64,000 bases of DNA. Source: Candidatus Eisenbergiella pullicola. GTDB taxonomy: Bacteria > Bacillota > Clostridia > Lachnospirales > Lachnospiraceae. Numbering within the stretch: the first letter of the stretch is position 1; every line of letters begins with the position of its first letter. The notes under the pieces were generated by a model. It was not told the DNA's origin. It did no database searches and saw nothing but the letters and a program-made list of their open reading frames with translations. Shown one piece after another: positions 1,864 through 45,680 of the stretch. A program made the position numbers and the translations under genes. The stretch lies in assembly GCA_019117385.1 (NCBI GenBank), contig DWZU01000033.1, positions 12,301-76,300 of the forward strand, read 5' to 3'.

Positions 1864-4278
1864 TCATCTGATGTCATATACGCTGCGGACGCCGAACTTT
1901 TCGGCGTCCCCGCGCAGAATGCGGATCTGCCTGCTCCCTCCTTCCAGATCGAAAAAGTTATCTTCCAGCACCGCATCCCCGTCTATGCCATACAGCTCCA
2001 CGCCCCGGGCAAAAGCTTTTGTCCGGACGGTCAGAAGATCTCCCCGCTTTTCCACCGACAGCTCCGGATCCCGGAAACGGTAATGCTTGGGCGCGGTGAA
2101 CAGCGCCGTTCCGCTGCTGACGGTCTGCCCGTCCCGTTTCAGAGCATAGGAAAAATGCTGCTCCAGAATGTCCACCTGGGGAAATTCCAGTTTCCGAAGC
2201 CAGCGGGCGGACAGCGGCTCCGCTTCCACTTCTTCTTCCCCGCTCTGCAGGATATTGCCGAAAGCGTCCCTCAGCTGCCACTCCACCGTTGCGCGAAATG
2301 CGGTCCTGGTTTCGTTGCAGACGCACAGCTGCATGGCGTTTTTCACTTCTGAGGGCTGGGCCACCACAGAGCTTCTCTGGGTGAGTTCATTCTCCTCCTG
2401 GCAGGAAACCGTCACCGGCGCAAAGAACCGCTTCGCCGCGTAGTGAAGCGCTTTCCAGCGGCCGAAATAGTCGATGGACGACCAGGAAGCCACCGGCCAG
2501 ATATCGTTGAGCTGCCAGTAGATGGCGCCCATGCACCTGCCCCGGTTTCTCCGGAAATGCTCCACGCCGTACCGGATGGCATCCGCCTGCAGCATCTGGG
2601 ACGCATACAGCAGTTCCGCGAAACCGGAAGGATACAGATACGTCATGGAAAGATACTGCAGGATCTTTCCGTTCGCCCCTTCGTTGCGCTGGTGCCGCTC
2701 CATCACCCTCGAAAAGACGTTACGGTCCTCCGGCAGGGTGAAGCTCTCCACGGTGCGCAGACAGGGGAAGGACTGGAACCCGAATTCCGACAGATAGCGG
2801 AAGCAGAAATCCCGATAGGCCGTAAAAGGAAGGCCGGAATGCCACACATCCCAGTTGTGTACATCCCCCCTGTCCGGACTGTTGGGTTCGTCATAACATC
2901 CGCCGGAGGACGGGGAGGAAGGCCAGAAGAAGGTATCCGGATCTTCCTTTTTGAGGATCCGGGGAACGATCTGTTCGAAAATCCGGATATAGACAGCTTT
3001 TGTCTTACAGTCTCCGCCGTATTTCCCCTGCTGCGACAGCCACTCCATCTCGTTGTTGCCGCACCACAGGCCCAGGCAAGCATGGTGCCGGATCCGCCGC
3101 ACGTTTTCCGCGATCTCCGCCGATATGTTTTCCTCGAATTCATCGGTCAGGCGGTAGTTGGCGCAGGCAAACATCAGGTCCTGCCAGACCACCAGCCCCA
3201 GCTCATCGCAGGCGTTATAAAAATCGTCCCCCGGATAATAGCCGCCGCCCCAGACGCGGATGATGTTAAAATGGCAGTCCCGGCAGTCTTCCAAAAGCCG
3301 CCTGGTCCGTTCCGGCGTCACCCGGGCGAGAACGCTGTCCTCCGGAATGTAATTCGCCCCCATGGCAAAAAACGGCACCCCGTTCACTTCATGGGCGAAG
3401 CCCTCCCCGTATTCGTCCTCCTGCCGCCGCACCGTCAGCGTCCTGAGCCCGATACGGCGCACCGCTTCCTCGAGGATTTCCCCGCCGTCTCCCTTCAGGC
3501 AGACCCGCACTTCATACAGCGGCTGTTCCCCCAGGCCGTTGGGCCACCAGAGACGTGGGCTTTCCACAGCGATTTCCTCCCCGTTTGGAATCCGCCGTTC
3601 CCTGCCCTCCGGATCCTTCAACAGGATTTCCGCGCCGGCCGGTTCCGCCGTCACCGTAAGGAAGACGCCGTCTTCGTGCCGCTGCCGGATGCGCACCTCT
3701 CCCAGCCGGCGCTCCCCCCAGGCCAGCAGGGAAACGCCCTTCCAGATTCCCGCGTCGGGAAGGCGGGGCCCCCAGTCCCAGCCGAACATGCAGTGGGGTT
3801 TTCTGATCTGCGGAAATCCCCGCATGGCATGTTGGGTTCCTCCCACGTGATATTCTCCGTCCCGTTCCCGGATAAAACGGGTGGGGGATAAAATTCTGAC
3901 CCGCAGCTCGTTATCGGAAGGGCGCAGCAGTCCCGTCACCTCCCACTCCCAGCTGCGAAAAAAATTGTCTGCCCTTCCGATCTGTACGCCGTTCAAAAAC
4001 ACGCTGGCAACAGTGTCGATTCCTTCAAAGCAGATCGCCGCATGGGCTGCCTCCAGCGCTTCCTTCGACGCGTCGAAGGTTTTGCAAAACGTGAAATCCT
4101 CTTCCATCAGCGCCAGGGCGTCCAGTTCATTTTCCCGGTAAAACGGATCCTCCATTTTCCCCGCATCCAGCAGGAAGGAATATACCGACCCGGGGATCCG
4201 GCCGGACACCGTTTCCCCGTTTTCCCGATGCAGCTCCCAGATTCCGTTCAGATTCCATTTCCTCATCTTTATCTTCAT
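1864..4278 (-). CDS. GH2 beta-mannosidase
   Basis: [30 protein letters not shown] and YWQLNDIWP motifs of GH2 beta-mannosidases; no signal peptide. Confidence 0.92.
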
Positions 4279-4312: not shown

Positions 4313-5254
4313 TTATCCTTTGACCGATCCGATCATCACGCCTTTTTCAAAATATTTCTGCAAAAACGGGAAAACGATCAGCATGGGCACGGTGGAAACC
4401 ACAATGACCCCGTATTTGATCAGGTTCATCACGTCCGCCTGTTCCAGCATCGCCTGCATGGCTCCGGCATCCACCACGTTATTCCCTTCCAGAATGGTGG
4501 TCATCAGTTTGCTCTGGATCAGGATCTCCCGCAAAATCAGCTGCAGGGGATATTTCTCCCTGTCGCTCAGATAGATCATCGCGTTGAAATACTCGTTCCA
4601 GTGCCCCACGCCATAATACAGCGCCATCACCACGATGATCGGCTTTGACAGGGGCAGCACCAGCTTTCGGAAAATCCCGAAATCGCTGCATCCGTCGATC
4701 ATCGCCGCCTCATGCAGCTCCCAGGAAATTCCCGCGAAGAAGGTGCGGGACACGATCAGGTTGTAGACCGATACCAGCCCGCCGAGCATCATATACAGCC
4801 GGGTGTTTAAAAGGCCGAAATCCCGGACGTTCAAATACATGGGGATCAGGCCGCCGCTGAAATACATGGTAACGATGAAAATTTTCATCAGCGGCCCCCT
4901 TCCCGGAAGGTCCTTTCGGGACAGGGCGTAGGCGCAGGGAAGGGTCACCAGCAGGTTTAAAACCGTTCCGCCCACCGTATAGAGGATCGTATTGGCATAG
5001 CCCGAGAAAATATCGTCATACTGGAGAATATACTCGTATCCCTCCAGCGTAAATCCCTTCGGAAGAAGGATCAGGTTTCCCGCCGCCACTTCCTTCGGAT
5101 CGCTGACCGAAGCGCTCAGCACGAACAGAAGGGGATAGAGGGCGATCACCACCGTGACGGCGAGCACGGCGAATATAATGACCGTAAACGCCAGATCGTT
5201 AAGGCTCATTTTCTTCCTATGTCTCGCCGCGTTCAAAGCAGTCTGATTTTTCAT
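4313..5254 (-). CDS. Carbohydrate ABC transporter permease (LplC/YtcP type)
   Basis: Multiple TM helices; EAAMIDG EAA loop; C-terminal [12 protein letters not shown]. Confidence 0.93.
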
Positions 5255-5266
5255 CTCATCCCCTCC

Positions 5267-6184
5267 TTACCACAGGCTCGTCTCCCCGGCTTTCCGGGAA
5301 ATGAAGTTGGCCGCCACCAGAATGATGCAGTTGATTACGGAATTGAACAGCCCGACCGCCGTGGAGAAGGAATAGCTGTTATTTTCCAGGCCCACCTTAT
5401 ATACATAGGTAGAAATGATCTCGGAGGCCATCAGGTTGGAATCGTTCTGCAAAAGATAGACCTTTTCGTATCCGATCCCCAGCAGGGAACCGCAGTTTAG
5501 AATGAATACGATCACCATGGTGGGAATCAGCGCAGGCAGATTCACGTGCAAAATCCGCTGAAACCGGGATGCCCCGTCCATCTCCGCCGCTTCCAGGATC
5601 TCTTTGTCCACGGAAGCCAGGGCCGCGAAATAGATAATGCTCCCCCACCCGGCTTCCTGCCAGATGCCCGACAGCACATAAATCCACTTAAACGCCCCGC
5701 TCTCCTGCATGAAAAAGATCGGTTCCCCGCCCAGCATCTCGATAAACTTGTTCACGATCCCGCTGCTGGGGCTTAAAAACAGGGTCAGCATACCGCAGAC
5801 CACCACGATGGAAATGAAATGGGGGGCAAACAGCACCGTCTGGATGGATTTGCGCGCCCGGTTATTCTTCACTTCGTTCAGGATCAGCGCGATGATCACG
5901 GATGCCGGAAATCCCAGGATCAGCGCCAGCACGCTCAGCGTCAGGGTATTTTTCAGAATGATGGGGAACCAGAAGGAAGAGAACAGTTTTTCGAACTGCT
6001 CCAGGCCCACCCACGGGCTCCCCAGCACTCCCTTCTTGAAACTGTAATCCTTAAACGCGATGATCAGGCCGTACATGGGTTTGTAGTTGAACAAAATCAC
6101 ATACAACAGCGCCGGGACGATCATCAGATAAAGCTGCCACCTGGGCAGAATTTTCGTTCTGTTCTTGCCTTTGGTTTTCGTCAT
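5267..6184 (-). CDS. Carbohydrate ABC transporter permease (LplB/YteP type)
   Basis: YKPMYGLIIAFKDY, EAAEMDGASRFQ, IISTYVYKVGL. Confidence 0.93.
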   Translation of the reverse strand: MTKTKGKNRTKILPRWQLYLMIVPALLYVILFNYKPMYGLIIAFKDYSFKKGVLGSPWVGLEQFEKLFSSFWFPIILKNTLTLSVLALILGFPASVIIALILNEVKNNRARKSIQTVLFAPHFISIVVVCGMLTLFLSPSSGIVNKFIEMLGGEPIFFMQESGAFKWIYVLSGIWQEAGWGSIIYFAALASVDKEILEAAEMDGASRFQRILHVNLPALIPTMVIVFILNCGSLLGIGYEKVYLLQNDSNLMASEIISTYVYKVGLENNSYSFSTAVGLFNSVINCIILVAANFISRKAGETSLW

Positions 6185-6204: not shown

Positions 6205-8364
6205 TTACGTTCCCTTGTTTTTTCTGTACTGGGAGGCGTTGATCCCATAAGTCTGCTTGAATTTCTTCCGAAAGCCGGGCACGTCGAAGTATCCCACGCT
6301 TTCCGCGATCTCCTGAATGGTCAGGTCCGTTTCCAGAAGCTTCTTTCTGGCCTCTTCCATCCTCAGGCCGCTCAGATAATCGATATAGCGGATTCCGAGC
6401 CTTTTCTTAAACAGCCTGCTGACATAGGTCTTGGAAAGATGGAACCGTTCGGCCACGTTTTCCAGGGAGAAATCGTTTCTCCAGAAATTTTCCCGGATAT
6501 ACTCCAGGATGCTGTCCATCAGCGGATCCGCTTCCCGGGAGCAGATTTCCTCCACCGCTTCCTGCATTCCCTTCAGGAACGCGGACGTATCCCCCAGGTT
6601 GAGGGCGCTGACTTTTTCCAGCGTCTCCGCCCCTTTTTCCGGCTCCTGATTCTGCAAAAATGCGATCATGTAGCGAAGCAGGCAGAAACAGCGGTAGTAC
6701 AGCTGTTCCCTGTCCGGCCCTTCTTCCCCGATCAGGCGGGCGAGGACCACTTGCGCCGCTTTCGCATCCCGCTCCGTCAGCGCCCGGTCAAATTTGCTCA
6801 GTTCTTCGTCCCCTTCGATTTTCTGCCTGCTCTCGTCCTCCAGCTTTCTCGTGCAGAAAAAGACTTCCGGGAGCTTTTCGGACGAAGCGAATTCCTGAAA
6901 CCGCTCCATGGTTTCCATCCAGGCATAGGCGATCATGTGCTTTTTCTCGTAAACATTGCTGATGATCACCGTCAGCTGTTCCCTTTTGTCCGCGAAAAAT
7001 CCAGACAGGCGGTCTCCCTGCTGCGCTCTCGCCGCCCGGTTGTCGTCCTCATTGGGCATTTGCAGCAGGAATTCATATACCGTGCGGTTTTGCAGCTGGT
7101 CGCAGCAGCAGATTTCCTCCTGCATTTCCCCCACGGCCTCCCGTTTCGGCTGCGGTTCCGCGCCGTCTTTCCTGCAGATCAGGCACACCGCGTAATACTC
7201 CCCGTAAAGCTCCTGCCCGCAGGCTTCCAGCAGCCGTTCCGCCTGGGCCACGTTGGTATACGTGCCGTGCAGAAGTTCCATGGCCCCCTGCTGCCGCACG
7301 ATTGCCCGGTATTCTTCGATGATCGTTTTGGACGCGTCGTTTTCCCGTACGATTCCCTTCACCGCTTCCTGCAAAAACTCCCATTCGTCCCGGTATTCCC
7401 TCCGGATCCCTGCCCGGCCTGCGCCCACCAGTCTGACCACCTTCTCCGTTTTCCGGTAATAGTTCAGGCTGATCCGAAAAGCTACGGCCCCGGAAAGGAC
7501 CATCAGCGCGGACATCAGCACGTACAGCGCGATATGATAGCGGGTCACATCCTCATAGATGGAGCCGTATTTCCAGCAGAAGCAGAAGGCTATCCCCGTA
7601 TCTTCCATCACCATCTCCTTGATCATCCAGTGTTCCTCTCCCTGACCGCCGGGAAATTCTTCTTCTGCGATCGCGGAAAACCCCTCTTCCCCGTTTCCGT
7701 TTAAGTACAGGGTCTGTCCGTTATCCAGTCCGATCTGTACGTACAGTTCCTCCACCTGCAAAAGAGGGGTCAGCAGCTGCGCAAACTCTTCCGCGCTCAT
7801 GCAGAAATTGACAGATCCCTCCTTGCTGTTGAGGGTTTTTCCCATGGGAAAATGAAAGACCAGACCGTAAGATCCGCTTTTCCCGCCGGAAAGCGCGATT
7901 CCTTTCCTATCGCTCCCGATCAGTTCCCTCATCTTTTCCTCGTCCGCCCCGCTGCAGCCCAGCGTATTTTCCACCCAGATATCCATGCTCGTGGATCCCT
8001 GCAGGGAATAAATGGTGCCCGTGCTGTAGGAAACAAAGCAGTCGCTGATCTGTTTATCATAGGAGCAAATCTGCGACAGAATGCCGATTCCCTCCTGAGC
8101 GTAACTTTCCCCCTGCAGCATAGCCGAGGGGGAAAGCTCGCGCATGGCGGACAGCTGGGCGCCTTTGGTGAGGAGATCCCTGTATTTTTTATCCACCGCT
8201 TCAATCACCTGATTGACCGCCAGGGACAGCCTGCTGTCGTCAAGCTTTTTGTATTCTCCGGATATTCCGTGAAAGGCGGCGAGGAGGATGATGAAGAGCG
8301 GAATCAGCAGCCCCACGTAAGAAAAAAACATTTTTTTGAGCATGCCGCTTCTGATTGCGCGCAT
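6205..8364 (-). CDS. Membrane-anchored AraC-family regulator (YtdP/YesS-like)
   Basis: Two TM segments flanking a sensor region; C-terminal AraC HTH (SLENVAERF...YVSRLFK...IAESVGY...FRKKFKQTYG). Confidence 0.9.
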   Translation of the reverse strand: MRAIRSGMLKKMFFSYVGLLIPLFIILLAAFHGISGEYKKLDDSRLSLAVNQVIEAVDKKYRDLLTKGAQLSAMRELSPSAMLQGESYAQEGIGILSQICSYDKQISDCFVSYSTGTIYSLQGSTSMDIWVENTLGCSGADEEKMRELIGSDRKGIALSGGKSGSYGLVFHFPMGKTLNSKEGSVNFCMSAEEFAQLLTPLLQVEELYVQIGLDNGQTLYLNGNGEEGFSAIAEEEFPGGQGEEHWMIKEMVMEDTGIAFCFCWKYGSIYEDVTRYHIALYVLMSALMVLSGAVAFRISLNYYRKTEKVVRLVGAGRAGIRREYRDEWEFLQEAVKGIVRENDASKTIIEEYRAIVRQQGAMELLHGTYTNVAQAERLLEACGQELYGEYYAVCLICRKDGAEPQPKREAVGEMQEEICCCDQLQNRTVYEFLLQMPNEDDNRAARAQQGDRLSGFFADKREQLTVIISNVYEKKHMIAYAWMETMERFQEFASSEKLPEVFFCTRKLEDESRQKIEGDEELSKFDRALTERDAKAAQVVLARLIGEEGPDREQLYYRCFCLLRYMIAFLQNQEPEKGAETLEKVSALNLGDTSAFLKGMQEAVEEICSREADPLMDSILEYIRENFWRNDFSLENVAERFHLSKTYVSRLFKKRLGIRYIDYLSGLRMEEARKKLLETDLTIQEIAESVGYFDVPGFRKKFKQTYGINASQYRKNKGT

Positions 8365-8390: not shown

Positions 8391-10106
8391 TTATTTATAC
8401 ATCCTGTCGTAAGCCGCCTGATCGATTTCCAGCATCCGGTCCAGACCCATGTTCTTTACGGTTTCCACATGGGACTCCCACTCGCTGTCGATATCCAGCT
8501 CGCCGGTGATGAATCTGGTGCGCATGGAGCCTAAGTAGGAGCTGATATCCGTATAGATGGTGCTCCGCTCTTCCGCTTCCTCAGCCGTATAGACCAGAGG
8601 AGGGAAGGTTTCCACTACCTGGTCCACGTCTCTGTGCGCCTTTTCCACCAGGACCAGCCAGCCGTAGGAATCCAGCAGCGCATCCAGGTCTTCATCCGTG
8701 GCCTTGTCCATCAGTTCATACTGATATCCTTTTCCCACGCCGTAAACGTTGAACGCCTCATTGGCGATCGCCTTTTTGTAACGGTACTCTTCCGAGGAAG
8801 AATAGCCTTCCGGGCAAACCCTTTCGCGGATCTCATAGTCGAAGGAAATACCGTCCACCTTCTCGTAATTCCAGTCGATCCCTTCGAAGCCGTCAATGGC
8901 TACAGCCGCGCCTTCGTCCGTATAGAAGAAATCCACCAGACGGGCCAGGGCTTCCGGATACTCGGTATCCGCATTGATCAGCACCCTCACGGAGCCCGTA
9001 TTGATATAGTTGTTCACCACGCTGGTGGAAACCGGGTTGTATTCGGAAGTCAGCCCGCCGAACCATGCGCAGGTGCTGTCGAAGGAAATGTCGGAATTCG
9101 CCACCACATAAGGTACGCCAAAAGCGAAGCAGCCCAGCGTATCCGCGGATACCTTCGCGCTCACCTCGTCAAAGGTGTTGGTAAAAGCTTCCTGATCCAT
9201 CAGCCCTTCTTCGTACAGCCGGTTCATAAACTCCAGAAAAGCCCTGTAGTTTTCGGTGATGTCGGCCAGATAAACCTGTCCTTCATCGTCCACCTGCAGG
9301 ATCGTATTCCCGGAGGTGGAGAAAATGCCGAATGCGGACTGTACCGCGACTACGCAGTTGCCGGTAGGGATTTCATCGTCAGGATCGCCGTTGCCGTTTG
9401 CGTCTTCTTCCTTAAATGCTTTCAGCACGTTATAAAAATCTTCCACCGTTTCCGGATAGTCCAGCCCCAGATTGTCCAGCCAGGTCTGTTTGATCCACTG
9501 GCGGTTCGCCAGGCCCACGTCCACGCCGTCGCCCGCTTCCAGTCTGGGCAGTCCGTAAATATTTCCGTCGGGCGCCGTGATCACCGCTTTATACTGGGGA
9601 TACTCTTCCATCACCGCCGTCAGATTGGGCATATACTCCAGATATTCATTGATCGGCAAAAAATAGCCTTCTTCTCCATAGGAATTGGCGTCCGTCTGAG
9701 AAATGCTGGCGTGGATGATCAGATCCGGCAGCTCGTCGGAAGCCATCATCAAAGACAGCTGCGTAGGCCATTCTTCCTGTTCATATACGGTACAGTCCAG
9801 TTTAATGCCGAAGCGCTTTTCGATTTCCTGCACCATGGTGGTTTCGTTCCAGTCTTTTCCTCCGTCGTAAGTGCCCGCCACCGCTACGGTAATCGTTTCA
9901 TCGCAGATCGGATATCCTTCTTTATTGAAATAACTGTCTCCGTCCGCAGCCGCCTGGCCGGAATTCCCGGCCGCAGACGTTTCCGCCGCGCCGCTCTCGG
10001 CCGCGCTCTGCGTACCGCTGTCAGAACCGCATCCGGTCAGCATGGAAAGGGTCATTGCGCTCACCAGGCCTGCGGAGATCAACTTCTTGAGGGCTCTTTT
10101 CTTCAT
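8391..10106 (-). CDS. Carbohydrate ABC transporter solute-binding lipoprotein
   Basis: Lipobox LTGC; LMMASDELPD; DANGNGDPDDEIP; adjacent permeases. Confidence 0.93.
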   Translation of the reverse strand: MKKRALKKLISAGLVSAMTLSMLTGCGSDSGTQSAAESGAAETSAAGNSGQAAADGDSYFNKEGYPICDETITVAVAGTYDGGKDWNETTMVQEIEKRFGIKLDCTVYEQEEWPTQLSLMMASDELPDLIIHASISQTDANSYGEEGYFLPINEYLEYMPNLTAVMEEYPQYKAVITAPDGNIYGLPRLEAGDGVDVGLANRQWIKQTWLDNLGLDYPETVEDFYNVLKAFKEEDANGNGDPDDEIPTGNCVVAVQSAFGIFSTSGNTILQVDDEGQVYLADITENYRAFLEFMNRLYEEGLMDQEAFTNTFDEVSAKVSADTLGCFAFGVPYVVANSDISFDSTCAWFGGLTSEYNPVSTSVVNNYINTGSVRVLINADTEYPEALARLVDFFYTDEGAAVAIDGFEGIDWNYEKVDGISFDYEIRERVCPEGYSSSEEYRYKKAIANEAFNVYGVGKGYQYELMDKATDEDLDALLDSYGWLVLVEKAHRDVDQVVETFPPLVYTAEEAEERSTIYTDISSYLGSMRTRFITGELDIDSEWESHVETVKNMGLDRMLEIDQAAYDRMYK

Positions 10107-10166: not shown

Positions 10167-10195
10167 ATTATAGTATCCCCGCTCTTATTTTGTAA
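10167..10195 (-). promoter_or_regulatory. SigA-type promoter of the SBP-AraC-permease-mannosidase operon
   Basis: TTACAA-N17-TATAAT on the minus strand, about 60 nt upstream of ATG 10106. Confidence 0.6.
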
Positions 10196-10264
10196 ATATG
10201 GCTAAAATATCACCCCTTTTTCCCCGATTTTGTGGCTTAATTGACTCGTTTTTTTCAGTCAGGT

Positions 10265-10282
10265 CATTTTTTTACATATTTT
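10265..10282 (+). repeat. 18-bp inverted repeat, left copy (CATTTTTTTACATATTTT)
   Basis: Exact reverse complement of 12515-12532; overlaps the stop codon of the GH42-like gene. Confidence 0.75.
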
Positions 10283-12383
10283 TCTGTATCCATACCGCCG
10301 TATGGGGCAACAGGGTTTTTCCGTCCACAGGATATTGAAAATCGCAACCCGCAGCCCGTTTTCGTTCTTCTTCCGGGATTTCCCAGGGCGTACTTCTGTG
10401 ATTCACCACGATCATCCCGTTTTCAAATTCCCCGATTTCCAGATCTTTTCCCGCCCATGGGCGAAGCCCTTCTTTCACGATTTCGGAAAACAGCGCCTCA
10501 AACAGTTTCGTTTTCGACAATGCCAGAGGGTACATTTCCCCGTTCTTCTGTTCGTAGGGGACATGGGGGATATTCTGGGAAGCATAGGCCGCTCCGGCCT
10601 GTACGCCGAAAGAGATCACGCGCCCGCAGCCGAAGGCCCTTTCCGCTACGCATGGTTTTTTGCTGTCCAGATAAACGGCCAGCGTTCGATCCCCTTCTAT
10701 GCTCTCAAAGGAGAGCCCCTGCGGGATAATCGGACGGTCGAAAATCCAGGGTTCTTTTCCGTGGGCGGTTCCCTCGATGCCGAAGGCGTGTTTCGCGTAT
10801 CCGTCCGCCGGGCCGTGGATCAGCGTTCCGCCCGCCTCCACCCAGCTTCTCAGCTCTTGTTCCGCTTCCGGTTTACGGTCCGTCTCATAGCAGTCGTCCG
10901 CAGGAAGGATCAGCACCTGATAGTCCGAAAGTCCGCCCGCTTCGATCTCCCGATAGTCGATAACATCCACCGCAAGCCCCAGATCGCTGAGGATCCGGTA
11001 CCATCCCAGGGAATCCAGCCGGCGTACCTTATTGCCCTCTGTCCGGAAAGGCTCGATCCCGGCCATGGCCGAAGGGAAGAGCAGAGCCGCCGTCTTTTTC
11101 CTCCGCCCCACCCGTTTTTCCGTCACCCGGCGGCACCAGAGATTCCCTTTTTTCAGGGATTCCTGGAAAGAATCGTCCAGGCAGTTTAAAATTCCGCCGT
11201 CATCCATCCCGTTGATCCCGTAACAGGAATAGCCGTCCGCTCCGGAGGCGGTCATGGTCCCGATGATCTCGCAGGGGGTCAGATAACGGTACAGATCCTG
11301 ATACAGAAATCTTCCCCAGTAAATTCCGCCCAGAAACGGCCTGCCCTTGTTCAGCGCCCGCATCATGCTGTGCTGGTAAGCGCTCACATATGCGTCCGGC
11401 GTCCCGTCCGGGGTAACGGGCACGGTCAGGAAATGGCAGCAGTCCACATGGGGCGCCAGCCCGTAAATATCCACGCCGCGCACCGCCGTATCCCACAGAT
11501 CGCAGAAGTCCGCGTCCTGATCCGTCAGCCGGCTGCCGTCTATATTGAGGAAATATCCCCACTGGGAAATCCCGGGAAACAGATACAGATCCTCTTTTAC
11601 CGTTTTAAGCCTTTCCTCCATCCGGCAAAAATACGCGGTCAGTTCCTCCATCCTCCACTGCGCGTTGTCCTGCCACAGGCGGAATCGCCTGGTCTGCTCC
11701 CGGATATCCGTCTCCGAAATGGGATCGCTGCCGTCATAATGAAAGCCAAACCAGCATTCCTCCAGCGTCAGCTCGCTGAAGTCCTTTTTCTCCACTCCGT
11801 AAGCCCGGTTAAACGCCTCGATCGTGCCGTACTTCCTTTTCAGGAAATCCGCATAGCGCTCCCGCCCTTCCTCTTCAAAACTCATGGCCACCATGGGATC
11901 CCACATGCTGCAGAGAGGATGCCTCTCCCTGCCTTCCACGGAAATGGAGGCCATATTTTCCCCATAGGTCTGCAGGAGCCGCTCCACATGATCCACCATG
12001 GATTTCTGGGCCGCAGGGGACCAGTACTTATACCATCTTCCCGGTTTTCCCTGCCGGTTGATCACTTCCTCGCCGAAAATGGGAGGGCTGAACCGGATTC
12101 GCGGATACAGGTTATCCCCGTTCAAATACAGGGCCAGAAACGTATGGGTCAGCCCGTGCCGCTTTGCGGAATCCATCATGAATTCCTGCATTTTCACGTA
12201 CTGGCTGGCTTCCCCGCCCTCGCACCTCTCCTTCACGTCTTCCCAGGCCTTCGTATCCAGCATCACGCTGTCGAACCCCAGACCGGCAATCTGTTCCATG
12301 GTCTTTTCCACGAAGGCCTCATCGTCGTATGCCGGGCGGTAAAAATTCCCGAACCATACGTTCAGCCATGCTCTTTTGCTCAT
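10272..12383 (-). CDS. GH42-fold (beta-galactosidase-like) protein with atypical catalytic positions
   Basis: KYGTIEAFNRAYG GH42 hallmark; C-terminal trimerisation-type domain (YQVLILP...WVEAGGTLI); RBS AAAGGAG before ATG 12383. Confidence 0.75.
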   Translation of the reverse strand: MSKRAWLNVWFGNFYRPAYDDEAFVEKTMEQIAGLGFDSVMLDTKAWEDVKERCEGGEASQYVKMQEFMMDSAKRHGLTHTFLALYLNGDNLYPRIRFSPPIFGEEVINRQGKPGRWYKYWSPAAQKSMVDHVERLLQTYGENMASISVEGRERHPLCSMWDPMVAMSFEEEGRERYADFLKRKYGTIEAFNRAYGVEKKDFSELTLEECWFGFHYDGSDPISETDIREQTRRFRLWQDNAQWRMEELTAYFCRMEERLKTVKEDLYLFPGISQWGYFLNIDGSRLTDQDADFCDLWDTAVRGVDIYGLAPHVDCCHFLTVPVTPDGTPDAYVSAYQHSMMRALNKGRPFLGGIYWGRFLYQDLYRYLTPCEIIGTMTASGADGYSCYGINGMDDGGILNCLDDSFQESLKKGNLWCRRVTEKRVGRRKKTAALLFPSAMAGIEPFRTEGNKVRRLDSLGWYRILSDLGLAVDVIDYREIEAGGLSDYQVLILPADDCYETDRKPEAEQELRSWVEAGGTLIHGPADGYAKHAFGIEGTAHGKEPWIFDRPIIPQGLSFESIEGDRTLAVYLDSKKPCVAERAFGCGRVISFGVQAGAAYASQNIPHVPYEQKNGEMYPLALSKTKLFEALFSEIVKEGLRPWAGKDLEIGEFENGMIVVNHRSTPWEIPEEERKRAAGCDFQYPVDGKTLLPHTAVWIQKNM

Positions 12384-12514
12384 CACGCAATCTCCTTTCC
12401 CCGTCCGCCGGGCCTTTCCTTTCCGTCCCGCCGGACGCCGCATCGAAAATGACAGGAAGAGCGTAACAGATTCCTCCCTGGCCGCATATCGGCATCCATG
12501 CCAACTCTTTCCCG

Positions 12515-12532
12515 AAAATATGTAAAAAAATG
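12515..12532 (-). repeat. 18-bp inverted repeat, right copy
   Basis: AAAATATGTAAAAAAATG, the exact reverse complement of 10265-10282. Confidence 0.75.
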
Positions 12533-12614
12533 CGGCGTTTCCGCCTCCTCCGTACAGGAAGGGGAAAACGCCGCATCGACAGCCGCCTATGCGGGAAAAA
12601 CAAAGCTCACTTCG

Positions 12615-13634
12615 TCAGCCTTCATATTCGATCACGACTTTGCATTCGTCATTGCTCCCGGATTCGAACAGCTTGACGAACATATCCTGCACCGCTTTCG
12701 CATCGTGAGGAATACGGCTGGTGATGGTCTTCAAAAACAGATCTTTGTTTTTGCAGATCATATCGAATGCTTCCCGATAATCCGCTGCCGTAAAGTACAA
12801 CCCCGTGCGGATGGCGATTTCCTTCATATACATCGGCATCGTCGCTGCAGACATCCGCTGTGCGTGCATGCCCAGCATCACCAGGGTAGCGCCGGAATTC
12901 ATGATCTGTACCAGCTCGTCGTAATTCTCCAGACCCAGGCAGTCTATGACATGGGAGAAGCCGTCTTCCGGCGTGATCGCCTTGAGCTGCTCGCCGAAGT
13001 CTTCCTCTTTCACGCTCAGACAGTCGTCCACGAATTCATAGTTCTTGCAGAAGTTCACGCGCCCCTTATTGCGTCCCACCATATAAACCTTGCCCGCTCC
13101 CAGGAGTTTGGCACAGGCCGCGGCATAGATGCCGATGGGGCCGTTTCCCCAGATCAACACCGCATCGCCGGGCTGAATGTTGCAGTATTTCACGCCGTGC
13201 AGAGACACCGCCACCGGCTCCGTGATGGCGCCCAGCTCCAGCGGCACGTCGTCCGGCAATTCACAGACGAAATCCCCTCGGACGCTGACGTATTCGGAAA
13301 ACGCGCCGTCCATCGTCACTCCCGGATTGTCCACCATCATCTGTTTACAGAGATGTTCCTGTCCGTTTTTGCAGAATTTGCACTGTCCGCAGGGATTGAA
13401 TTCCGCCGCGCATACCCTCGCTCCCTTTTTGAACGGGAAATCGCCCGGATCCTCGACATATCCGCTGAACTCATGTCCGATGGACATTCCCTGATACGCG
13501 TTCCAGAGCATATTATCGCTGCCGCAGATCGCCACGTATTTCGTTTTCAGGATCACCCTTCCTTCCGATGCCTTCGGCATGTCCTTCTCCACCATTTCGA
13601 AATTGTGAACGGGATTGATAATCAAACTCTTCAT
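12615..13634 (-). CDS. Zn-dependent medium-chain (sugar/polyol) dehydrogenase
   Basis: ICGSD, GHE, structural CxxCxxC...C and GNGPIG motifs. Confidence 0.92.
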   Translation of the reverse strand: MKSLIINPVHNFEMVEKDMPKASEGRVILKTKYVAICGSDNMLWNAYQGMSIGHEFSGYVEDPGDFPFKKGARVCAAEFNPCGQCKFCKNGQEHLCKQMMVDNPGVTMDGAFSEYVSVRGDFVCELPDDVPLELGAITEPVAVSLHGVKYCNIQPGDAVLIWGNGPIGIYAAACAKLLGAGKVYMVGRNKGRVNFCKNYEFVDDCLSVKEEDFGEQLKAITPEDGFSHVIDCLGLENYDELVQIMNSGATLVMLGMHAQRMSAATMPMYMKEIAIRTGLYFTAADYREAFDMICKNKDLFLKTITSRIPHDAKAVQDMFVKLFESGSNDECKVVIEYEG

Positions 13635-13660
13635 AGCGCGTCCTCCTTTCGCCGCTGCGA

Positions 13661-14191
13661 TTAAATATAGTAAACCCTTTTTCCCTTTCTTTCAGCCGGT
13701 TGCGGATAGTCCCCGTCCGGATATCCCAGAATGCAGTGTCCGATCCCCTCGTAATCCCCTTCGATTCCAAGGGATTTCAGAATTTCCTTTCCTTCCGGAC
13801 GTTCGAACTCCTCTTTTGCCCGGTGAATCCAACAGCTGCCGATGCCTAACGCATGAGCGGCCAACATCAGATTCGCCATCACCAGGCTGCCGTCATAGAC
13901 ATACGTGCCGCAGTTTCGATCTGCCAAAACGATCAGAACGGCCGGCGCGCCGTAAAACGGATCCCCGTCCGTTCCCATGATCGAGGCGTTGAGCCGGGAC
14001 AGGCGATCCCGCATATCCCGATCCGTCACCGCCACGATAATAGGGGACTGGCGGTTCATACCGGTAGGCGCCCAGAGACCGGCCTCGATGATCCTGTCCA
14101 GATCCTCCTTCCCGATCGCGTCCGGTTTGTACTTGCGCACGCTCCTCCTGCTTTCGATACAATCGAAAATTTCCTTCTGCTTTTGCGTCAT
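13661..14191 (-). CDS. Nitroreductase family protein
   Basis: RRSVRKY, APTGMNRQ, NLMLAAHALGIGSCWI. Confidence 0.93.
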   Translation of the reverse strand: MTQKQKEIFDCIESRRSVRKYKPDAIGKEDLDRIIEAGLWAPTGMNRQSPIIVAVTDRDMRDRLSRLNASIMGTDGDPFYGAPAVLIVLADRNCGTYVYDGSLVMANLMLAAHALGIGSCWIHRAKEEFERPEGKEILKSLGIEGDYEGIGHCILGYPDGDYPQPAERKGKRVYYI

Positions 14192-14194
14192 GAT

Positions 14195-14293
14195 AACCTC
14201 CATTCCGGAGCGCCGGCGACGGGACGAAGAGAATTCGCGAACGCTTTTTCCCTTCTGTCATAAGAGCCGTTTGCGACGCTCCGCACAAACAGG
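14195..14293 (-). repeat. About 100-nt structured intergenic element, copy 1 (candidate cis-RNA or MITE-like element ending in the RBS)
   Basis: Clear similarity to 59591-59690; hairpin whose loop (CGGAGCGU) is complementary to a segment beside the SD. Confidence 0.7.
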
Positions 14294-14335
14294 CCCGTCT
14301 TTCCCAAATAGTGGCATCTCGGTTCTTTCAGACAT

Positions 14336-15331
14336 TCATAGAACCTGCGCGCAGGACGCGCCGCTTAAAACGATTTCATCCCGCTTTTGCAAACGGTTTT
14401 CCTCCCAGGCGAACACGTTCAGCACGCCCTCTCTGTTGCAGGCGTTGACTACCAGGTTCGTCCCCGGAACCTGCGACAAATGCCGGGGCCAGTTTCCCGT
14501 CTCCCATTCGCCGATCCGGTTCAGTTTTTCCTCCTTCACCGAAAAAGCCGCCACCGTATTGGCTCCCCGGTTACAGACCAGTACCGTATGGGCATCCGCC
14601 ATACAGGCCGTGCCGGGATAATTGATCCCCTGCTCCCCTGTGGCCTGCACAGTCTGAACGCAGGCCGGAGTCGTCGTCCTGTCGCTTCCTTCATACCGCC
14701 AGAGCCGCAGCGTGCCGTCCAGTTCCTGGACGGACAAAAGCAAATTTTCCGTCAAAGGCAGCAGCTGCCGCGGTCCGGCTCCTTCGGGCAGACGAATCGG
14801 ATTCAGTTCCTCCTCCGGCAGCCCGTTCGCCATCCGATAGCGATAAATCCGGTCCCGCCCCAGATCCGACAGGTAAAGGATATCTTCCTGCTGCGAGGCC
14901 CAGTGCGCATGGGGCCTGGCCCCGTCTTCAGCGCCCCCGCAATGCGCCACATCCTCGGGTTTGCGGTGCCAGAGGATCTTTTTCAGCCCGTAGTCCACCG
15001 CAAAAAAGTCCCCCGTACCGTAGCAGCTGGCGTACAACGCCGTCTCCCCTTCCCAGAGATGGCACAACTCCCCGCCGGGCAACGCGATCCGACCCTCCTC
15101 TTCCCCCAGAGAGCCGTCCTCCCGTACGCGCCGGCGACCGATGGCCGCCCGTTCTGTCTGCTCCGACACCATGTACAAAAAGCCGTCTTTCTTCAGAATC
15201 CAGGAAGGGCTGCCCCCCTGCCGAATCCCTCCCTCTACTTTCGCCTTCCCCTCCCGGCTCAGGCAGACCGTCAGAACATCGTTCCCCGCTTCCGCGGTAT
15301 AACCGCTGCAGGCCAGTCTGATCTCCCTCAT
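14336..15331 (-). CDS. Lactonase family beta-propeller protein (Pgl/YkgB-like)
   Basis: PHAH, GAGPRQL and WPRH motifs; RBS AAGGAG before ATG 15331. Confidence 0.85.
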   Translation of the reverse strand: MREIRLACSGYTAEAGNDVLTVCLSREGKAKVEGGIRQGGSPSWILKKDGFLYMVSEQTERAAIGRRRVREDGSLGEEEGRIALPGGELCHLWEGETALYASCYGTGDFFAVDYGLKKILWHRKPEDVAHCGGAEDGARPHAHWASQQEDILYLSDLGRDRIYRYRMANGLPEEELNPIRLPEGAGPRQLLPLTENLLLSVQELDGTLRLWRYEGSDRTTTPACVQTVQATGEQGINYPGTACMADAHTVLVCNRGANTVAAFSVKEEKLNRIGEWETGNWPRHLSQVPGTNLVVNACNREGVLNVFAWEENRLQKRDEIVLSGASCAQVL

Positions 15332-15345
15332 TTCCGTCTCCTTCT

Positions 15346-16158
15346 TCATTTGAGATCCAGATCCGTCTTCAGCCACCAGCGCAGCACGTCCTGAATCTTC
15401 GCATCCCAATATTTCCACTGGTGATCCCCTTCCGACTCTTCACAGGTCAGATCGTATCCCAGTTTCTTCACATGATCCCACACTTTCAGGTTTCCCTCGT
15501 ACAGAAAATCCCCTGTGCCGCACCAGGCATACAGCGGCGGCAGCTCCTCCCGGAGCTTGTTCGCTGCCAATCCGTCCGCCAGCGCGAGAATCTCATCGCT
15601 CGATCCCTGCAACCTCTCCACGTTTCCGAAGATCCCTTCAAAAAGCGCCTTCTTTCCTTCCGGCACCTCCGTCTGCCTCCGATAGTCTTCCACGATATCC
15701 AGCGCGCCGGACAAAGACGCGCCTGCCCCGAAGGTGTCGCTGGCCCTCAACGCCAGTTTCCACGCTCCATAGCCGCCCATGGACAGCCCCGCCGCCAGGG
15801 TATCCTCCCTTCTGTCCGACATGCGCGGGAAGAATTCACGGCAGATTTTCGGCAACTCTTCCGACACAAATGTCCAATATTTCATCCCATACGTCGTATC
15901 CGTGTAAAACGCCAGATGCGTGGTGGGCATCACCACCGCGATCCCCAGCTGGCTGACATAGCGCTCGATGGAGGTGCGCCTCTGCCAGATGGTCTGATCA
16001 TCGCTCATCCCGTGGAGCAGATACATGGTCTTATAGCGCCCGTCCGCGGCCTTTCCCTCCATCCCGATCTGCCCGCTGGTCTGTTGTGGCAGAATCACGT
16101 CCATATCCATACACATTCCCAGTACATCTGAGAAAAAATCCACATGCAGCAATGCCAT
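15346..16158 (-). CDS. Alpha/beta-hydrolase esterase (tributyrin esterase/FrmB-like)
   Basis: YLLHG, GLSMGG nucleophile elbow, GDHQWKYWD; RBS GGAGGA before ATG 16158. Confidence 0.9.
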   Translation of the reverse strand: MALLHVDFFSDVLGMCMDMDVILPQQTSGQIGMEGKAADGRYKTMYLLHGMSDDQTIWQRRTSIERYVSQLGIAVVMPTTHLAFYTDTTYGMKYWTFVSEELPKICREFFPRMSDRREDTLAAGLSMGGYGAWKLALRASDTFGAGASLSGALDIVEDYRRQTEVPEGKKALFEGIFGNVERLQGSSDEILALADGLAANKLREELPPLYAWCGTGDFLYEGNLKVWDHVKKLGYDLTCEESEGDHQWKYWDAKIQDVLRWWLKTDLDLK

Positions 16159-16463
16159 TGCCAAAGTCCTCCTCGCTGAATATTTTGCAGAATGCCTCCC
16201 TTTCATTGTAGCATTCCGCCGTCCCTCTGGCAAGCCGGCGCAGGCATTCAAAATTCGATCAGTCGCCTCAAAAAAGGCACTTCTCTCCGCCCTTTCCAAC
16301 GGTATCATCAAATCATATATACAAACCTTTTTTAAATTTGAAAAACCTCCTGACGGATGGTATAATGAATGAATAGTATCTCTCGATAAACGGCCGCCCG
16401 AAAGCCGTCTCTTTCCCGACGCGGCCGCAGTATTCCGCGCTGTGGCGCATACCGGTAAACACC

Positions 16464-17507
16464 ATGAAAAAAGTAACTTTACAGGAGATTGCCAAGTCCT
16501 TAAACATTTCCCGCACCACCGTCTGGAAAGTCTTCAGCGGACACGACGGCGTTTCCGATGCGTTGAGAGACAGAGTTCTGACCCGCGCCCGCGAACTGGG
16601 ATATCAGTTTCCGGAACGCATCGCCGGCGGAACTACCCCTGAGATCTCTTCTTCCACCAGCATCGCCCTCGCCGTCTGCCGTCCGGAAACCTCCATCTTC
16701 TGGATGAAGATCATCCATCAGGTGGCCAAAGAGCTCTCTTTTCTCAACGCCAATCTGGTATATACCTATCTGCCATCCACCGTGGACGGAGACTATACTC
16801 TCCCGGCGTCCCTCACGAATGGCAGCACACAGGGCATGATCGTGATGAACGTGTACGATGAGCAACTGGTTCGTCTGCTGGCCTCCCTGTCCGTACCGAA
16901 GGTCTTTCTGGACACGCCCACGCACATCCCTCCGTCCCAGCTGAACGGGGATCTGCTTCTGATGGAAAGCGCGGACAGCGTCTCCCGCATCACGGAGCAT
17001 CTGATCCAACAAGGCAAAAAATCCTTCGGTTTCATCGGCGATATCGATTATGCGAAATCCAACTACGAACGATATGAGGGTTTTCTGAATACGCTCGTCA
17101 GACACCGCATTTCCTGGGATCCTTCCCTGTTCCTTACCGGCGCCATCGGGATGGATACCCACAAAGAGGAAATCGATGCATTTCTGGATACTTTTTCCAA
17201 AATGCCGGATGCTTTCGTCTGTGTCAGCGACTACGTGGCCTGCATCCTGATCCAGCTTTTAAACAAGCGGGGGTATCGGGTTCCGGAAGACGTGGCCGTG
17301 GCCGGTTTCGACCGCAACCTGGAACATCCTTTGGCCGAGGATCTCACCACCGTCCAGGTATTCAACCAGGATATCGGGCAACGGCTGGCGCACCAGATAC
17401 TGTTTCGGATGAAACACCCCAAAACGCGATACGAAATCACCTATGTCTCTTCTGAGCCCATTTTCCGCGCCTCCACCGGGGATGCGCCGGATCCCACGGT
17501 GGCATGA
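16464..17507 (+). CDS. LacI-family transcriptional regulator
   Basis: VTLQEIAKSLNISRTTVWKVFSG HTH; RVPEDVAVAGFD; divergent from the esterase operon. Confidence 0.93.
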   Translation: MKKVTLQEIAKSLNISRTTVWKVFSGHDGVSDALRDRVLTRARELGYQFPERIAGGTTPEISSSTSIALAVCRPETSIFWMKIIHQVAKELSFLNANLVYTYLPSTVDGDYTLPASLTNGSTQGMIVMNVYDEQLVRLLASLSVPKVFLDTPTHIPPSQLNGDLLLMESADSVSRITEHLIQQGKKSFGFIGDIDYAKSNYERYEGFLNTLVRHRISWDPSLFLTGAIGMDTHKEEIDAFLDTFSKMPDAFVCVSDYVACILIQLLNKRGYRVPEDVAVAGFDRNLEHPLAEDLTTVQVFNQDIGQRLAHQILFRMKHPKTRYEITYVSSEPIFRASTGDAPDPTVA

Positions 17508-34103: not shown

Positions 34104-35522
34104 TCACTTCTGCGCTTCCTTCATCAGATAGTACAGGGAGGTCACGCCTGCGCCGGTAGCTCCGCTGCTCTCGAACGCATAGGTAGGCGTCCCGCACCAG
34201 GCCGTTCCGGCGATATCCAGATGGATCCAGGGCTTACCCTCGCAAAAATGCCGGATGAACAGCCCTGCCGTAATGGTTCCGCAGAAGCTTCCTCCGATAT
34301 TTTTCACATCCGCCACATCGCTTTCGATCATTTTCTCATGTTCTTTTCCGAAGGGGATCCGCAGATACCTCTCTCCGGAATGGGTCAATCCCCGTTCGAA
34401 CAGGCCGTAAAACTCCTCATCGTCCGACATCGCCCCTCCGATGGTATTTCCCAGCATCTGCGCCACCGCACCGGTCAACGTGGCGATATCCAGCACTTTG
34501 GTAATCCCCTCTTTCCGGATCCCGTAGCTCACAGCGTCGGACAGCACCAGGCGCCCTTCCGCATCCGTGTTGAGCACCTCGATGGTCTGCCCGCTATAGC
34601 CGGTGATCACATCGCCGGGCAGAAGCGCCGACTGGGAGATGCGGTTTTCCGCCAGAGGCAGGCAAGCCGTGATATTCACCTTTAACCCCATCTTCGCCGC
34701 CGCGTATATCGCAGCTGTCACCGCCGCAGCGCCTCCCATGTCCCCCTTGATACCGGCCATGGAGTCCCGGGGTTTCAAGCAGTAACCGCCGGTATCGCAG
34801 GTGATTCCTTTCCCGATCAGCCCGTAGACTTCGCTGTCCTCCGGGTTACCCCGATAGCGCAGGATGAGCAGGCATGGCGGATATTCGCTGCTGCCGCCGA
34901 TCCCATAGAGCGCTTCCATGTGCATGGCGCGCAGCTGACCGTACACCAGGGCTTCCGCTTCGATGGGCGCATCCCCCACATATTTCTGGATGATCCGCTC
35001 GAAATCCATGGGGCGCAGATGGTTGCCGGGGGTATTGACCATGTCCCTGGCAAACCGGATACCTTTTAAGAGTTCCTGCCCTTCCTTCAGCTGCTCGGGG
35101 AAGTCCTCCGCGCCCTCCAGCCCGAAAACGCATTCCTTTTCCGGTTCCCGGCCGGTTTTCCGGTATACATATTCATAACCTCCCAGGCCCAGCCCCAGCA
35201 CCGCCGAGATTACCGCATCCGGCCCCAACCGTTCCACAAAGGGCTTCAGATTCGCCGAACATTCCTCGATTCCGCGCGCTTTGCACGCTTTTGCCACCGA
35301 GGCCATAAGCTCCTTGACCTCCAGAAGCGTCAGTTCGCGCTCCTTCCCGCAGCCCGCCAGCAGCACGGTCTGGCCGCCCAGAGGCACAGGCATAACGTCA
35401 AGATAGTTCCCGGAAAACAGATTTTCCAGCCCCATCTTATAGCCGCGGATATGGGGATCCTTTTCCCAGACGAAATCCACATAACACGCGTCATTGCGCC
35501 TCTTCACCGCTTGTATCATCAT
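34104..35522 (-). CDS. pepA: M17 leucyl aminopeptidase
   Basis: GKGITCDTGG, KGDMGG, NTDAEGRL, DIATLTGA, WIHLDIAGT. Confidence 0.93.
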   Translation of the reverse strand: MMIQAVKRRNDACYVDFVWEKDPHIRGYKMGLENLFSGNYLDVMPVPLGGQTVLLAGCGKERELTLLEVKELMASVAKACKARGIEECSANLKPFVERLGPDAVISAVLGLGLGGYEYVYRKTGREPEKECVFGLEGAEDFPEQLKEGQELLKGIRFARDMVNTPGNHLRPMDFERIIQKYVGDAPIEAEALVYGQLRAMHMEALYGIGGSSEYPPCLLILRYRGNPEDSEVYGLIGKGITCDTGGYCLKPRDSMAGIKGDMGGAAAVTAAIYAAAKMGLKVNITACLPLAENRISQSALLPGDVITGYSGQTIEVLNTDAEGRLVLSDAVSYGIRKEGITKVLDIATLTGAVAQMLGNTIGGAMSDDEEFYGLFERGLTHSGERYLRIPFGKEHEKMIESDVADVKNIGGSFCGTITAGLFIRHFCEGKPWIHLDIAGTAWCGTPTYAFESSGATGAGVTSLYYLMKEAQK

Positions 35523-35554
35523 TCCAAAAACCTTCTTTCTTCTTCTCCCTCACA

Positions 35555-35589
35555 AGACAGCCATGCTCGCTTTTTTCGCATGGCTGTCT
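35555..35589. other. Intercistronic 12-bp stem-loop between yitT and pepA
   Basis: AGACAGCCATGC...GCATGGCTGTCT. Confidence 0.6.
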
Positions 35590-35595
35590 GTTAAA

Positions 35596-36447: not shown

Positions 36448-36463
36448 TCTCTCACTCCCCCAA

Positions 36464-39013: not shown

Positions 39014-39033
39014 CTTCTCATCCCTGCCTTTCC

Positions 39034-40056: not shown

Positions 40057-40072
40057 ATTCTTCTCCTTCTTC

Positions 40073-41506: not shown

Positions 41507-41525
41507 AAAAAATCCGTCATCCTTT

Positions 41526-42815: not shown

Positions 42816-42884
42816 TTTGCCAGTTTTCCTCCCTGTTTCGCTTTTTCGAAGTCATTCCTCCGGTATGCACAAGTTTGCATCCCG

Positions 42885-42926
42885 AAAAAAAAGGCATATT
42901 ACCGAATCATCCGTAATATGCCTTTT
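42885..42926 (-). terminator. Intrinsic terminator-like stem-loop between the SBP and GH29 genes
   Basis: AAAAGGCATATTAC-N10-GTAATATGCCTTTT with a T8 run on the minus strand. Confidence 0.75.
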
Positions 42927-42984
42927 TGACATCGCCCGTTTTCTCCCGGGCGGCGCCGCTCTCAGGCGGCGCCAGTCATCCTCA

Positions 42985-45667: not shown

Positions 45668-45680
45668 GCTTCGTTCCCTC

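Follow-up and report, generated by a model that had tools for sequence, protein, structure and literature searches.

A GH42-fold protein family that lacks the strand-7 nucleophile and recurs in N-glycan loci: a probable new glycoside hydrolase family

We analyzed a gene in a 64,000-nucleotide stretch of the Candidatus Eisenbergiella pullicola genome (contig DWZU01000033.1), here called the window, and find that its product has the fold of the family 42 glycoside hydrolases (GH42) and a glycine in place of the catalytic nucleophile. The protein falls outside GH42, GH112, GH164, and GH35. It lacks the defining sequence and catalytic features of these four families, although the fold is common to all, and its relatives probably constitute a new GH family built on a GH42 scaffold with a remodeled catalytic center. 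The locus context is that of high-mannose N-glycan catabolism, and the explanation that we favor, with moderate confidence, is an active cytoplasmic exo-glycosidase that would carry out an α-mannosidase–type step by a non-classical single displacement. The gene, its domains, and its conserved motifs are arranged as follows.

10272–12383, minus strand: gene for the GH42-fold protein, 703 amino acids (aa), stop codon included (open reading frame list, ribosome-binding site, fold prediction)
11100–12383, minus strand: catalytic (β/α)8 barrel domain, residues 1–428 (DSSP of both structural models)
10554–11096, minus strand: GH42M-like domain (trimerization, glutamine-amidotransferase–like), residues ~430–610 (PF08532, 28 bits)
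10275–10553, minus strand: C-terminal β-sandwich domain, residues ~611–703 (model strands 648–701; hhalign to the GH42 C-terminal domain)
12249–12263, minus strand: MLDTK, end of strand 2, with Asp43 and Lys45
12102–12122, minus strand: NGDNLYP, loop after strand 3, with Asp90 and Asn91
11892–11915, minus strand: LCSMWDPM, end of strand 4, residues 157–164; Asp162 is encoded at 11898–11900
11310–11345, minus strand: GRPFLGGIYWGR, strand 7, residues 347–358; Gly353 is encoded at 11325–11327
11193–11222, minus strand: YGINGMDDGG, loop after strand 8; Asp394-Asp395 are encoded at 11199–11204

The most likely start is the ATG at 12383, which has AAAGGAG 7 nt upstream and gives a product with the N terminus MSKRAWLNVWFGNFY; the alternative longer frame from 12443 (10272–12443, a 723-aa form) has no ribosome-binding site. 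The protein carries no signal peptide and is therefore cytoplasmic.

A GH42-type architecture outside the known families

An AlphaFold2 model of the whole protein, calculated with 30 homologues as input (pLDDT 80, pTM 0.87), comprises a (β/α)8 barrel (residues 1–428), a Rossmann-like domain, and a C-terminal β-sandwich, which is the three-domain architecture of GH42. The best matches to this model in a Foldseek search of the PDB are the GH42 β-galactosidases 4uzs, 4ucf, 4uni, and 8ibr (TMq 0.66–0.69; E 1e-27 to 1e-23); next come IaSGT, a glucosyltransferase of the GH35 type, and GH164 Bs164. A model of the barrel only (pLDDT 74.5) matches IaSGT, GH14 β-amylase, GH42, Cwp19, and GH164. Neither model has a GH112 structure among its 50 best structural matches, and no structure from GH18, GH20, GH84, GH85, GH163, or GH185 appears among the top 50 matches of the barrel-only model.

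Profile comparisons agree with this placement. We aligned 44 family members with 11 GH42 and with 10 GH112 proteins using hhalign, the references being taken from related genomes. The GH42 alignments reach probabilities of 99.0–99.8% (E 9e-18 local, 1e-27 global) over residues 9–672, whereas the GH112 alignment reaches 82.8% (E 9e-6) and covers mostly domains 2 and 3; the protein is therefore a remote relative of GH42 and not specifically of GH112. The GH42-like fold that an earlier note had read from the sequence of this DNA is thus borne out (Foldseek TM 0.67, hhalign 99%). Its proposed parallel to GH112 finds no specific support, given the 82.8% match mostly in domains 2 and 3, the placement of the Asp of the GH112 GDHW motif opposite Ser273, and the absence of GH112 from the top 50 structures.

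In direct sequence searches, the Pfam GH42 model PF02449 scores 22 bits (cut-off 21) over just residues 188–218 (31 residues) of the 723-aa form, and PF08532 (GH42M) is marginal at 28 bits; a whole-genome search with PF02449 recovers the true GH42 protein of this genome and not the GH42-fold gene. There is no Pfam match to the GH112 model PF09508 at E ≤ 1, no match to the DUF4838, GH18, GH20, or GH85 Pfam models, no matching NCBIfam model, and no significant hit in a single-sequence search of the PDB. Membership of GH185 or GH163 (DUF4838), raised by a DUF4838 gene beside one relative, was rejected on the lack of a Pfam match and the different fold neighbors. Searched with the family profile, the PDB yields matches to helix 4 and domain 2 only (the second domains of 7vkx, 9ta3, 4ucf, and 8ibr; also 6t5o), the best match to any solved structure being IaSGT at E 2e-10.

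A word-indexed search returned 383 matches, the best 120 of which are all 45–99% identical to the protein; the few names among these 120 are "hypothetical" or "beta-galactosidase trimerization domain-containing." Exhaustive searching across 1.84 billion representatives gave 187 clusters (50% identity) at E ≤ 1e-3, ~17 of them full length, with identities down to 28%, and did not reach true GH42 proteins. The distribution is patchy: members occur in 6 of the 251 genera sampled from the bacterial family of the window and, within the genus of the window, in 2 of 20 species, and the genome of the window carries one copy. We found no description of the family in the literature on GH42-like/Glyco_hydro_42M proteins, on new mannosidase and N-glycan GH families, or on Lachnospiraceae N-glycan loci. 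One homologue, P0012 (1032 aa), has a C-terminal extension of ~300 aa that occurs in no other.

A remodeled catalytic center

Residue conservation was counted over 137 full-length relatives. In the hhalign alignment, the GH42 nucleophile motif pFllME lies opposite RPFLGGIYWG, with the nucleophile Glu facing Gly353, and position 353 is Gly in 135 of the 137 sequences and Glu in one. The last residue of strand 7 (352–355 by DSSP), at position 355, is Tyr in 128, Phe in six, and Asp in one, so that strand 7 holds no conserved carboxylate in this set. The replacement of the nucleophile Glu by Gly claimed in the earlier note accordingly stands, as do the motifs that it quoted, LCSMWDPM, YGTIEAFNRAYG (found from residue 185 of the 703-aa protein), and GRPFLGGIYWGR, all of which are present where it placed them. 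The conservation check that it called for gives Asp or Glu at position 162 in 136 of 137 sequences, along with the near-invariant Gly353 and the aromatic residue (Tyr or Phe) at position 355. As a control, the true GH42 of the same genome retains both WHISNE and FLMMES.

At the end of strand 4 (152–161), Asp162 forms part of a Trp161-Asp162-Pro163 motif rather than the Asn-Glu of GH42; the position is Asp in 134 sequences and Glu in two. An ungapped count back from helix 4 brings Asp162 to within one residue of the Glu of the GH42 "NE" motif, and we consider it a probable general acid from these comparisons. The earlier claim that the acid/base Glu has become Asp holds insofar as an acidic residue is kept at this strand end; the exact equivalence is only probable because hhalign and phmmer place the segment in different registers against the GH42 Glu.

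The GH42 zinc cluster is also missing, as previously noted, since there is no Cys after strand 4. Most family members harbor a C-x-x-C motif before strand 4, followed by a low-complexity insert that varies and reaches up to ~80 aa, and a conserved Cys158; the C-x-x-C is missing from the window protein and from the two sequences closest to it. C-x-x-C and Cys158 could form a metal site unlike the zinc site of GH42.

Other residues have become specific to the family. Arg358 is conserved in 133 of 137 sequences and shares the strand-7 loop with the family-specific, conserved Asp363 and Glu372. Asp394 (135/137) and Asp395 (136/137) are the carboxylates most strongly conserved in the family; they fall within the YG.NG.DDGG sequence that follows strand 8 and is universal in the family, lie within two residues of the GH42 EKFH motif in the hhalign alignment, and are candidates for the catalytic base or for sugar or metal binding. 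Asn91, Trp297, and Asp305 are each found in 137 of 137 sequences, and Asp90 is nearly invariant. Asp43 and Lys45 of strand 2, on the catalytic face, are conserved and family-specific, and so, on the C-terminal barrel face, are Gln274 and Trp275 of strand 5 together with Trp297, Asp298, and Arg302. Overall, more than 20 near-invariant polar residues lie on the catalytic face of the barrel in sequences down to 28% identity. This concentration of conserved residues makes a pseudo-enzyme, an option left open by the earlier note, unlikely: it is at the strand ends and loops of the barrel that conservation within the family is highest.

Two exceptional members depart from these patterns. P0130 (locus L034) is the sole member with Glu at the nucleophile position (LVEFYVGK), and its Arg358 is replaced by Lys; P0137 has Glu at position 162 and Asp at position 355 (LDICR). 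Either may represent a transitional state or a reversion and could help to retrace the steps by which the nucleophile disappeared.

Comparison with structurally related enzymes

For GH42, the comparison set comprised β-galactosidases and α-L-arabinopyranosidases of clan GH-A (e.g., 1KWG, 4UZS, 4UNI, 8IBR, and 5XB7). The family shares with them the three-domain architecture (TMq 0.67), a similar length, the acidic residue at the end of strand 4, the helix-4 motif RY..FL...Y..I..LN, the GID.Y..A..D sequence before strand 6, and A.G.DG before strand 8. It differs in having Trp-Asp-Pro in place of Asn-Glu and Gly-Gly-Ile-Tyr in place of the Glu at strand 7, in lacking the zinc Cys cluster, and in its newly conserved Asp43, Lys45, Asp90, Asn91, Arg358, and Asp394-Asp395; moreover, sequence searches fail to link the two families, and the genes sit in an N-glycan/mannoside rather than a galactoside context.

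With GH112 the family has in common the GH42-like architecture, the absence of a protein nucleophile, and, if the role presumed for Asp162 is correct, an Asp proton donor. To our knowledge, GH112 is the only precedent for a change of this kind, with loss of the nucleophile, on a GH42-type scaffold. Unlike GH112, the family has no conserved Asp where that of the GDHW motif aligns, Ser273-Gln274-Trp275 on strand 5 (a low-confidence alignment), matches neither PF09508 nor GH112 structures at the top of the structural search, and occurs in a different substrate context.

The GH164 β-mannosidase Bs164 (6T5O) and the GH35-type β-1,2-glucosyltransferase IaSGT (7VKZ) have the same three-domain fold (TMq 0.61–0.66), and GH164 also acts on mannosides; both, however, are classical retaining enzymes with two glutamates, of which the family lacks the one on strand 7. 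In the barrel-only comparison, GH14 β-amylase (3VOC, 1ITC) matches about as well as GH42 (E 7e-11, TMq 0.57). GH14 enzymes are inverting and act on α-linkages; unlike the family, they keep a strand-7 Glu as general base and lack the trimerization and sandwich domains, and no sequence relationship is detectable.

Genomic context

Downstream of the GH42-fold gene, the window holds, in order, a promoter-like site, a solute-binding lipoprotein, an AraC regulator, two permeases, and a GH2 β-mannosidase, the transport genes belonging to an ATP-binding cassette (ABC) importer.

10167–10196, minus strand: promoter-like site TTTACA-18-TATAAT (11/12 match) between the GH42-fold gene and the binding-protein gene
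8391–10106, minus strand: lipoprotein solute-binding protein of the ABC importer
6205–8364, minus strand: membrane-anchored AraC-type regulator
4313–6184, minus strand: two ABC permease genes (5267–6184 and 4313–5254)
1864–4278, minus strand: cytoplasmic GH2 β-mannosidase

The functional tie to the importer and β-mannosidase that the earlier note had suggested is strengthened by relatives from other genomes, in which the pairing recurs. That note had overlooked the N-glycan setting (GH38, GH130, GH85, GH125, and mannose-6-phosphate isomerase), which is apparent in the loci compared here ("target" denotes the GH42-fold gene; SBP, solute-binding protein; PMI, mannose-6-phosphate isomerase).

L015–L019: GH38, two-component system, SBP, permeases, SBP, target, GH2 β-mannosidase
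L013 (Butyrivibrio): LacI, permeases, SBP, target, GH38, GH3, GH20, GH130, GH125, NagB
L046 (genome G042): permeases, SBP, GH130, target, GH38, GH85, ROK kinase/PMI
L049: GH130, target, GH38, PMI
L048: SBP, GH130, target
L033 (40%-identical relative): DUF4838 (GH163-type), GH63-like, target

The recurring core thus consists of an ABC importer, GH38, the GH42-fold family, and GH2 or GH130, often with GH85 and PMI. None of the compared loci contains GH92, and GH125 occurs in the Butyrivibrio locus only. Genome G042 encodes one GH38 and neither GH92 nor GH125, so that α-mannosidase activity appears to be missing there; across six family-carrying genomes, GH92 is absent in four and GH125 in three, which is suggestive only. 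The arrangement resembles the high-mannose route of Streptococcus pneumoniae (GH85 EndoD, ABC importer, GH92, GH38, and GH125) in placing an endoglycosidase outside the cell, importing Man_n-GlcNAc through an ABC system, and relying on cytoplasmic exo-mannosidases (PMC5215778). It differs from that route in the constant pairing of the GH42-fold family with GH38 and with GH2 or GH130, and in having GH92 in no locus.

The genome of the window, 2.9 Mb in size, has a mannoside arsenal unusually large for its size (contigs C21, C42, C46, C53, C61, and C64). It includes three GH2 β-mannosidases, two of which lie beside GH38 or GH20/GH3/GH125, as well as GH3 and GH20; GH130 and GH112 are absent from this genome.

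Proposed role and mechanism

From the fold, the loss of the nucleophile, the conserved catalytic face, and the genomic context, all of which are observed, we infer the catalytic activity, the substrate, and the identity of the nucleophile or base. The family would descend from a GH42/GH35-type clan GH-A scaffold of TIM barrel, trimerization domain, and β-sandwich. Its substrates would be imported N-glycan fragments (Man_n-GlcNAc) inside the cell, where the enzyme may work alongside GH38 and directly before the cleavage of the β-mannoside (by GH2 here and by the GH130 phosphorylase in relatives). In a high-mannose glycan released by an endoglycosidase, all linkages are α-mannosides except Manβ1,4-GlcNAc. 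The constant adjacency to GH2 or GH130 suggests that the enzyme exposes this β-mannose, and the N-glycan setting (GH38, GH130, GH85, GH125, PMI) points to an α-mannoside or similar linkage, not a galactoside; its most likely task would be to take off an α-linked mannose that GH38 leaves. The apparent shortage of α-mannosidase activity in G042 is a further argument, from context, for an α-mannosidase–type role.

Since strand 7 has no carboxylate, the classical double displacement of clan GH-A can operate only if the nucleophile comes from a neighboring subunit or from a carboxylate in a loop. We propose that the nucleophile was replaced by the Gly-Gly stretch followed by the conserved Arg358, that Asp162 would protonate the leaving group, and that water would attack from the vacated side. 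Either Asp394/Asp395 or one of the strand-7 loop residues Asp363 and Glu372 would activate this water; an attack by phosphate in its place is less likely. More tentatively, and rather improbably in so specific a form, the family may be either the first α-D-mannosidase on this scaffold, with an inverting mechanism or with help from a metal or a neighboring group, or a second phosphorylase lineage that arose from GH42 separately from GH112.

Several points weigh against an α-mannosidase acting by single displacement. We know of no α-D-mannosidase on a clan GH-A scaffold. The register of the Asp162 segment differs between hhalign and phmmer, and Ser replaces Asp162 in a small divergent subclade. 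The conserved catalytic loops 87–119, 162–169, and 279–304 are the low-confidence parts of both models, and Asp363, Glu372, Asp394/Asp395, or a carboxylate of a neighboring subunit could stand where the nucleophile was and so make a retaining mechanism possible again. The genome of the window, with nine GH38-like genes, two GH125, and one GH92, shows no α-mannosidase gap. Finally, distant members (28–47% identity) are found in unrelated contexts, namely GH43 with a ROK kinase, a GFO/IDH/MocA oxidoreductase with a xylose-isomerase–like TIM protein, and sulfatases. One such gene (P0136, 35% identical, locus L020) adjoins a DUF5107/DUF4432 protein, a GFO/IDH/MocA oxidoreductase, and a xylose-isomerase–like TIM (AP_endonuc_2) protein, a set that recalls, by analogy, pathways for oxidative (3-keto) glycoside cleavage.

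Alternative explanations

An inverting phosphorylase like GH112, in which Asp162 would donate the proton and phosphate bound in the cavity of the lost nucleophile would attack C1 to give a sugar 1-phosphate, is unlikely in our judgment, phosphorolysis being possible by analogy only. The cavity proposed for phosphate is formed by Gly352-Gly353, Arg358, and the glycine-rich strand-8 loop, and the family conserves specific basic residues on the catalytic face (Lys45, Arg97, Arg302, and Arg358) as well as invariant glycines after strands 7 and 8, the region that forms the standard phosphate site in many TIM barrels. The only member with Glu353 is also the one in which Arg358 is Lys, and GH130 phosphorylases directly adjoin the family genes in several loci. 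GH112 itself has a GH42-like architecture, with its phosphate site and proton donor near the positions of the GH42 nucleophile and acid/base (PMC8106489). Against phosphorolysis stand the modest hhalign match to GH112 (82.8%), the alignment of the GH112 catalytic Asp to Ser273, and the lack of a GH112 structure among the top 50 structural matches. The loci argue in the same direction: the sole β-linkage remaining after cleavage by GH85 or GH18 is already served by GH2 or GH130, phosphorolysis of an α-mannoside would give β-mannose 1-phosphate, for which no partner enzyme is seen, and the loci hold mannose kinase/PMI, enzymes of free mannose, and no phosphomutase.

A comparably small chance attaches to a retaining glycosidase, the nucleophile of which would have moved (to Asp394/Asp395, Asp363, Glu372, or Asp162 itself) or be supplied by the substrate as a 2-acetamido or 2-OH group. 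An Asp on strand 4 is the nucleophile of the GH13, GH27, GH31, and GH36 α-glycosidases, and the predominance of Asp over Glu at this position in the family fits these α-retaining barrels. The 2-acetamido group serves as nucleophile in GH18, GH20, GH84, and GH85, and the 2-OH in GH99; adjacent Asp-Asp or Asp-Glu pairs are typical of GH84 and GH20, which the Asp394-Asp395 pair, the most conserved acidic pair of the family, recalls. GlcNAc-containing glycans belong to the context, with GH20, GH3, and GH163 nearby. However, no GH13, GH27, GH31, GH36, GH18, GH20, GH84, or GH85 structure appears in the top 50 matches of the barrel-only model, and, in contrast to the substrate-assisted families, the sequence has no second carboxylate one or two residues before Asp162.

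Least probable of the three is a protein that does not cleave glycosides, either a dead GH42 relic kept for sugar binding or regulation or a barrel repurposed as an isomerase, epimerase, or lyase. The loss of the canonical nucleophile, and in a few divergent members of Asp162 as well, would fit such a change, as would the separate promoter region of the window gene with its flanking perfect 18-nt inverted repeat (see below) and the position of one distant relative beside an oxidoreductase and a xylose-isomerase–like TIM protein. These points are countered by conservation that is strongest on the catalytic face, with its more than 20 near-invariant polar residues, by the retention of all three GH42 domains, and by the location of the gene within enzyme operons, between GH130 or GH2 and GH38, in many unrelated assemblies. 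A β-1,2-xylosidase or bisecting-GlcNAc–removing enzyme of plant or avian N-glycans was also considered from context, with nothing specific to support it.

Other features of the window

Upstream of the GH42-fold gene, a hairpin ends the preceding dehydrogenase unit, and the GH42-fold gene therefore has its own transcription start. Co-oriented genes for a Zn-dependent alcohol dehydrogenase, a 7-bladed lactonase, and an esterase (12615–16311) are separated from the GH42-fold gene by this hairpin, and a LacI regulator (16464–17507) is divergent from them. A perfect 18-nt AT-rich inverted repeat at 10265–10282 and 12515–12532 (CATTTTTTTACATATTTT / AAAATATGTAAAAAAATG) encloses exactly the GH42-fold gene together with the region upstream of it, with an overlap between one arm and the stop codon of the gene, and the chance expectation of such a repeat is ~5e-5 in 2.5 kb. 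Taken with the occurrence of the gene in few species of the genus (2 of 20) and with its unusual location before the promoter of the ABC operon itself, the repeat suggests an inserted cassette or an invertible segment. Farther along, a second N-glycan core operon includes a GH18 protein that is likely an endo-β-N-acetylglucosaminidase.

12530–12576, minus strand: terminator-like hairpin followed by a T-run
34104–46610, minus strand: second N-glycan core operon, with an ABC importer (two permeases and a solute-binding protein), two GH29 fucosidases, and the 340-aa cytoplasmic GH18; further genes encode an 857-aa transglutaminase-core protein, a YitT membrane protein, and an M17 aminopeptidase

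Significance

N-glycan foraging is far less well mapped in gut Firmicutes than in Bacteroides. Most of the loci described here show just GH38 and a β-mannoside–cleaving enzyme, a set that looks incomplete, and the GH42-fold family is their constant partner. Knowledge of what it does would supply a step in the breakdown of high-mannose N-glycans by the Lachnospiraceae of the chicken, rumen, and human gut and would probably add a family to CAZy. It would also give a second natural case, after GH112, of a retaining clan GH-A barrel turned to a mechanism without an enzyme nucleophile, which would be useful for understanding how glycosidase mechanisms evolve and for engineering glycan-trimming tools.

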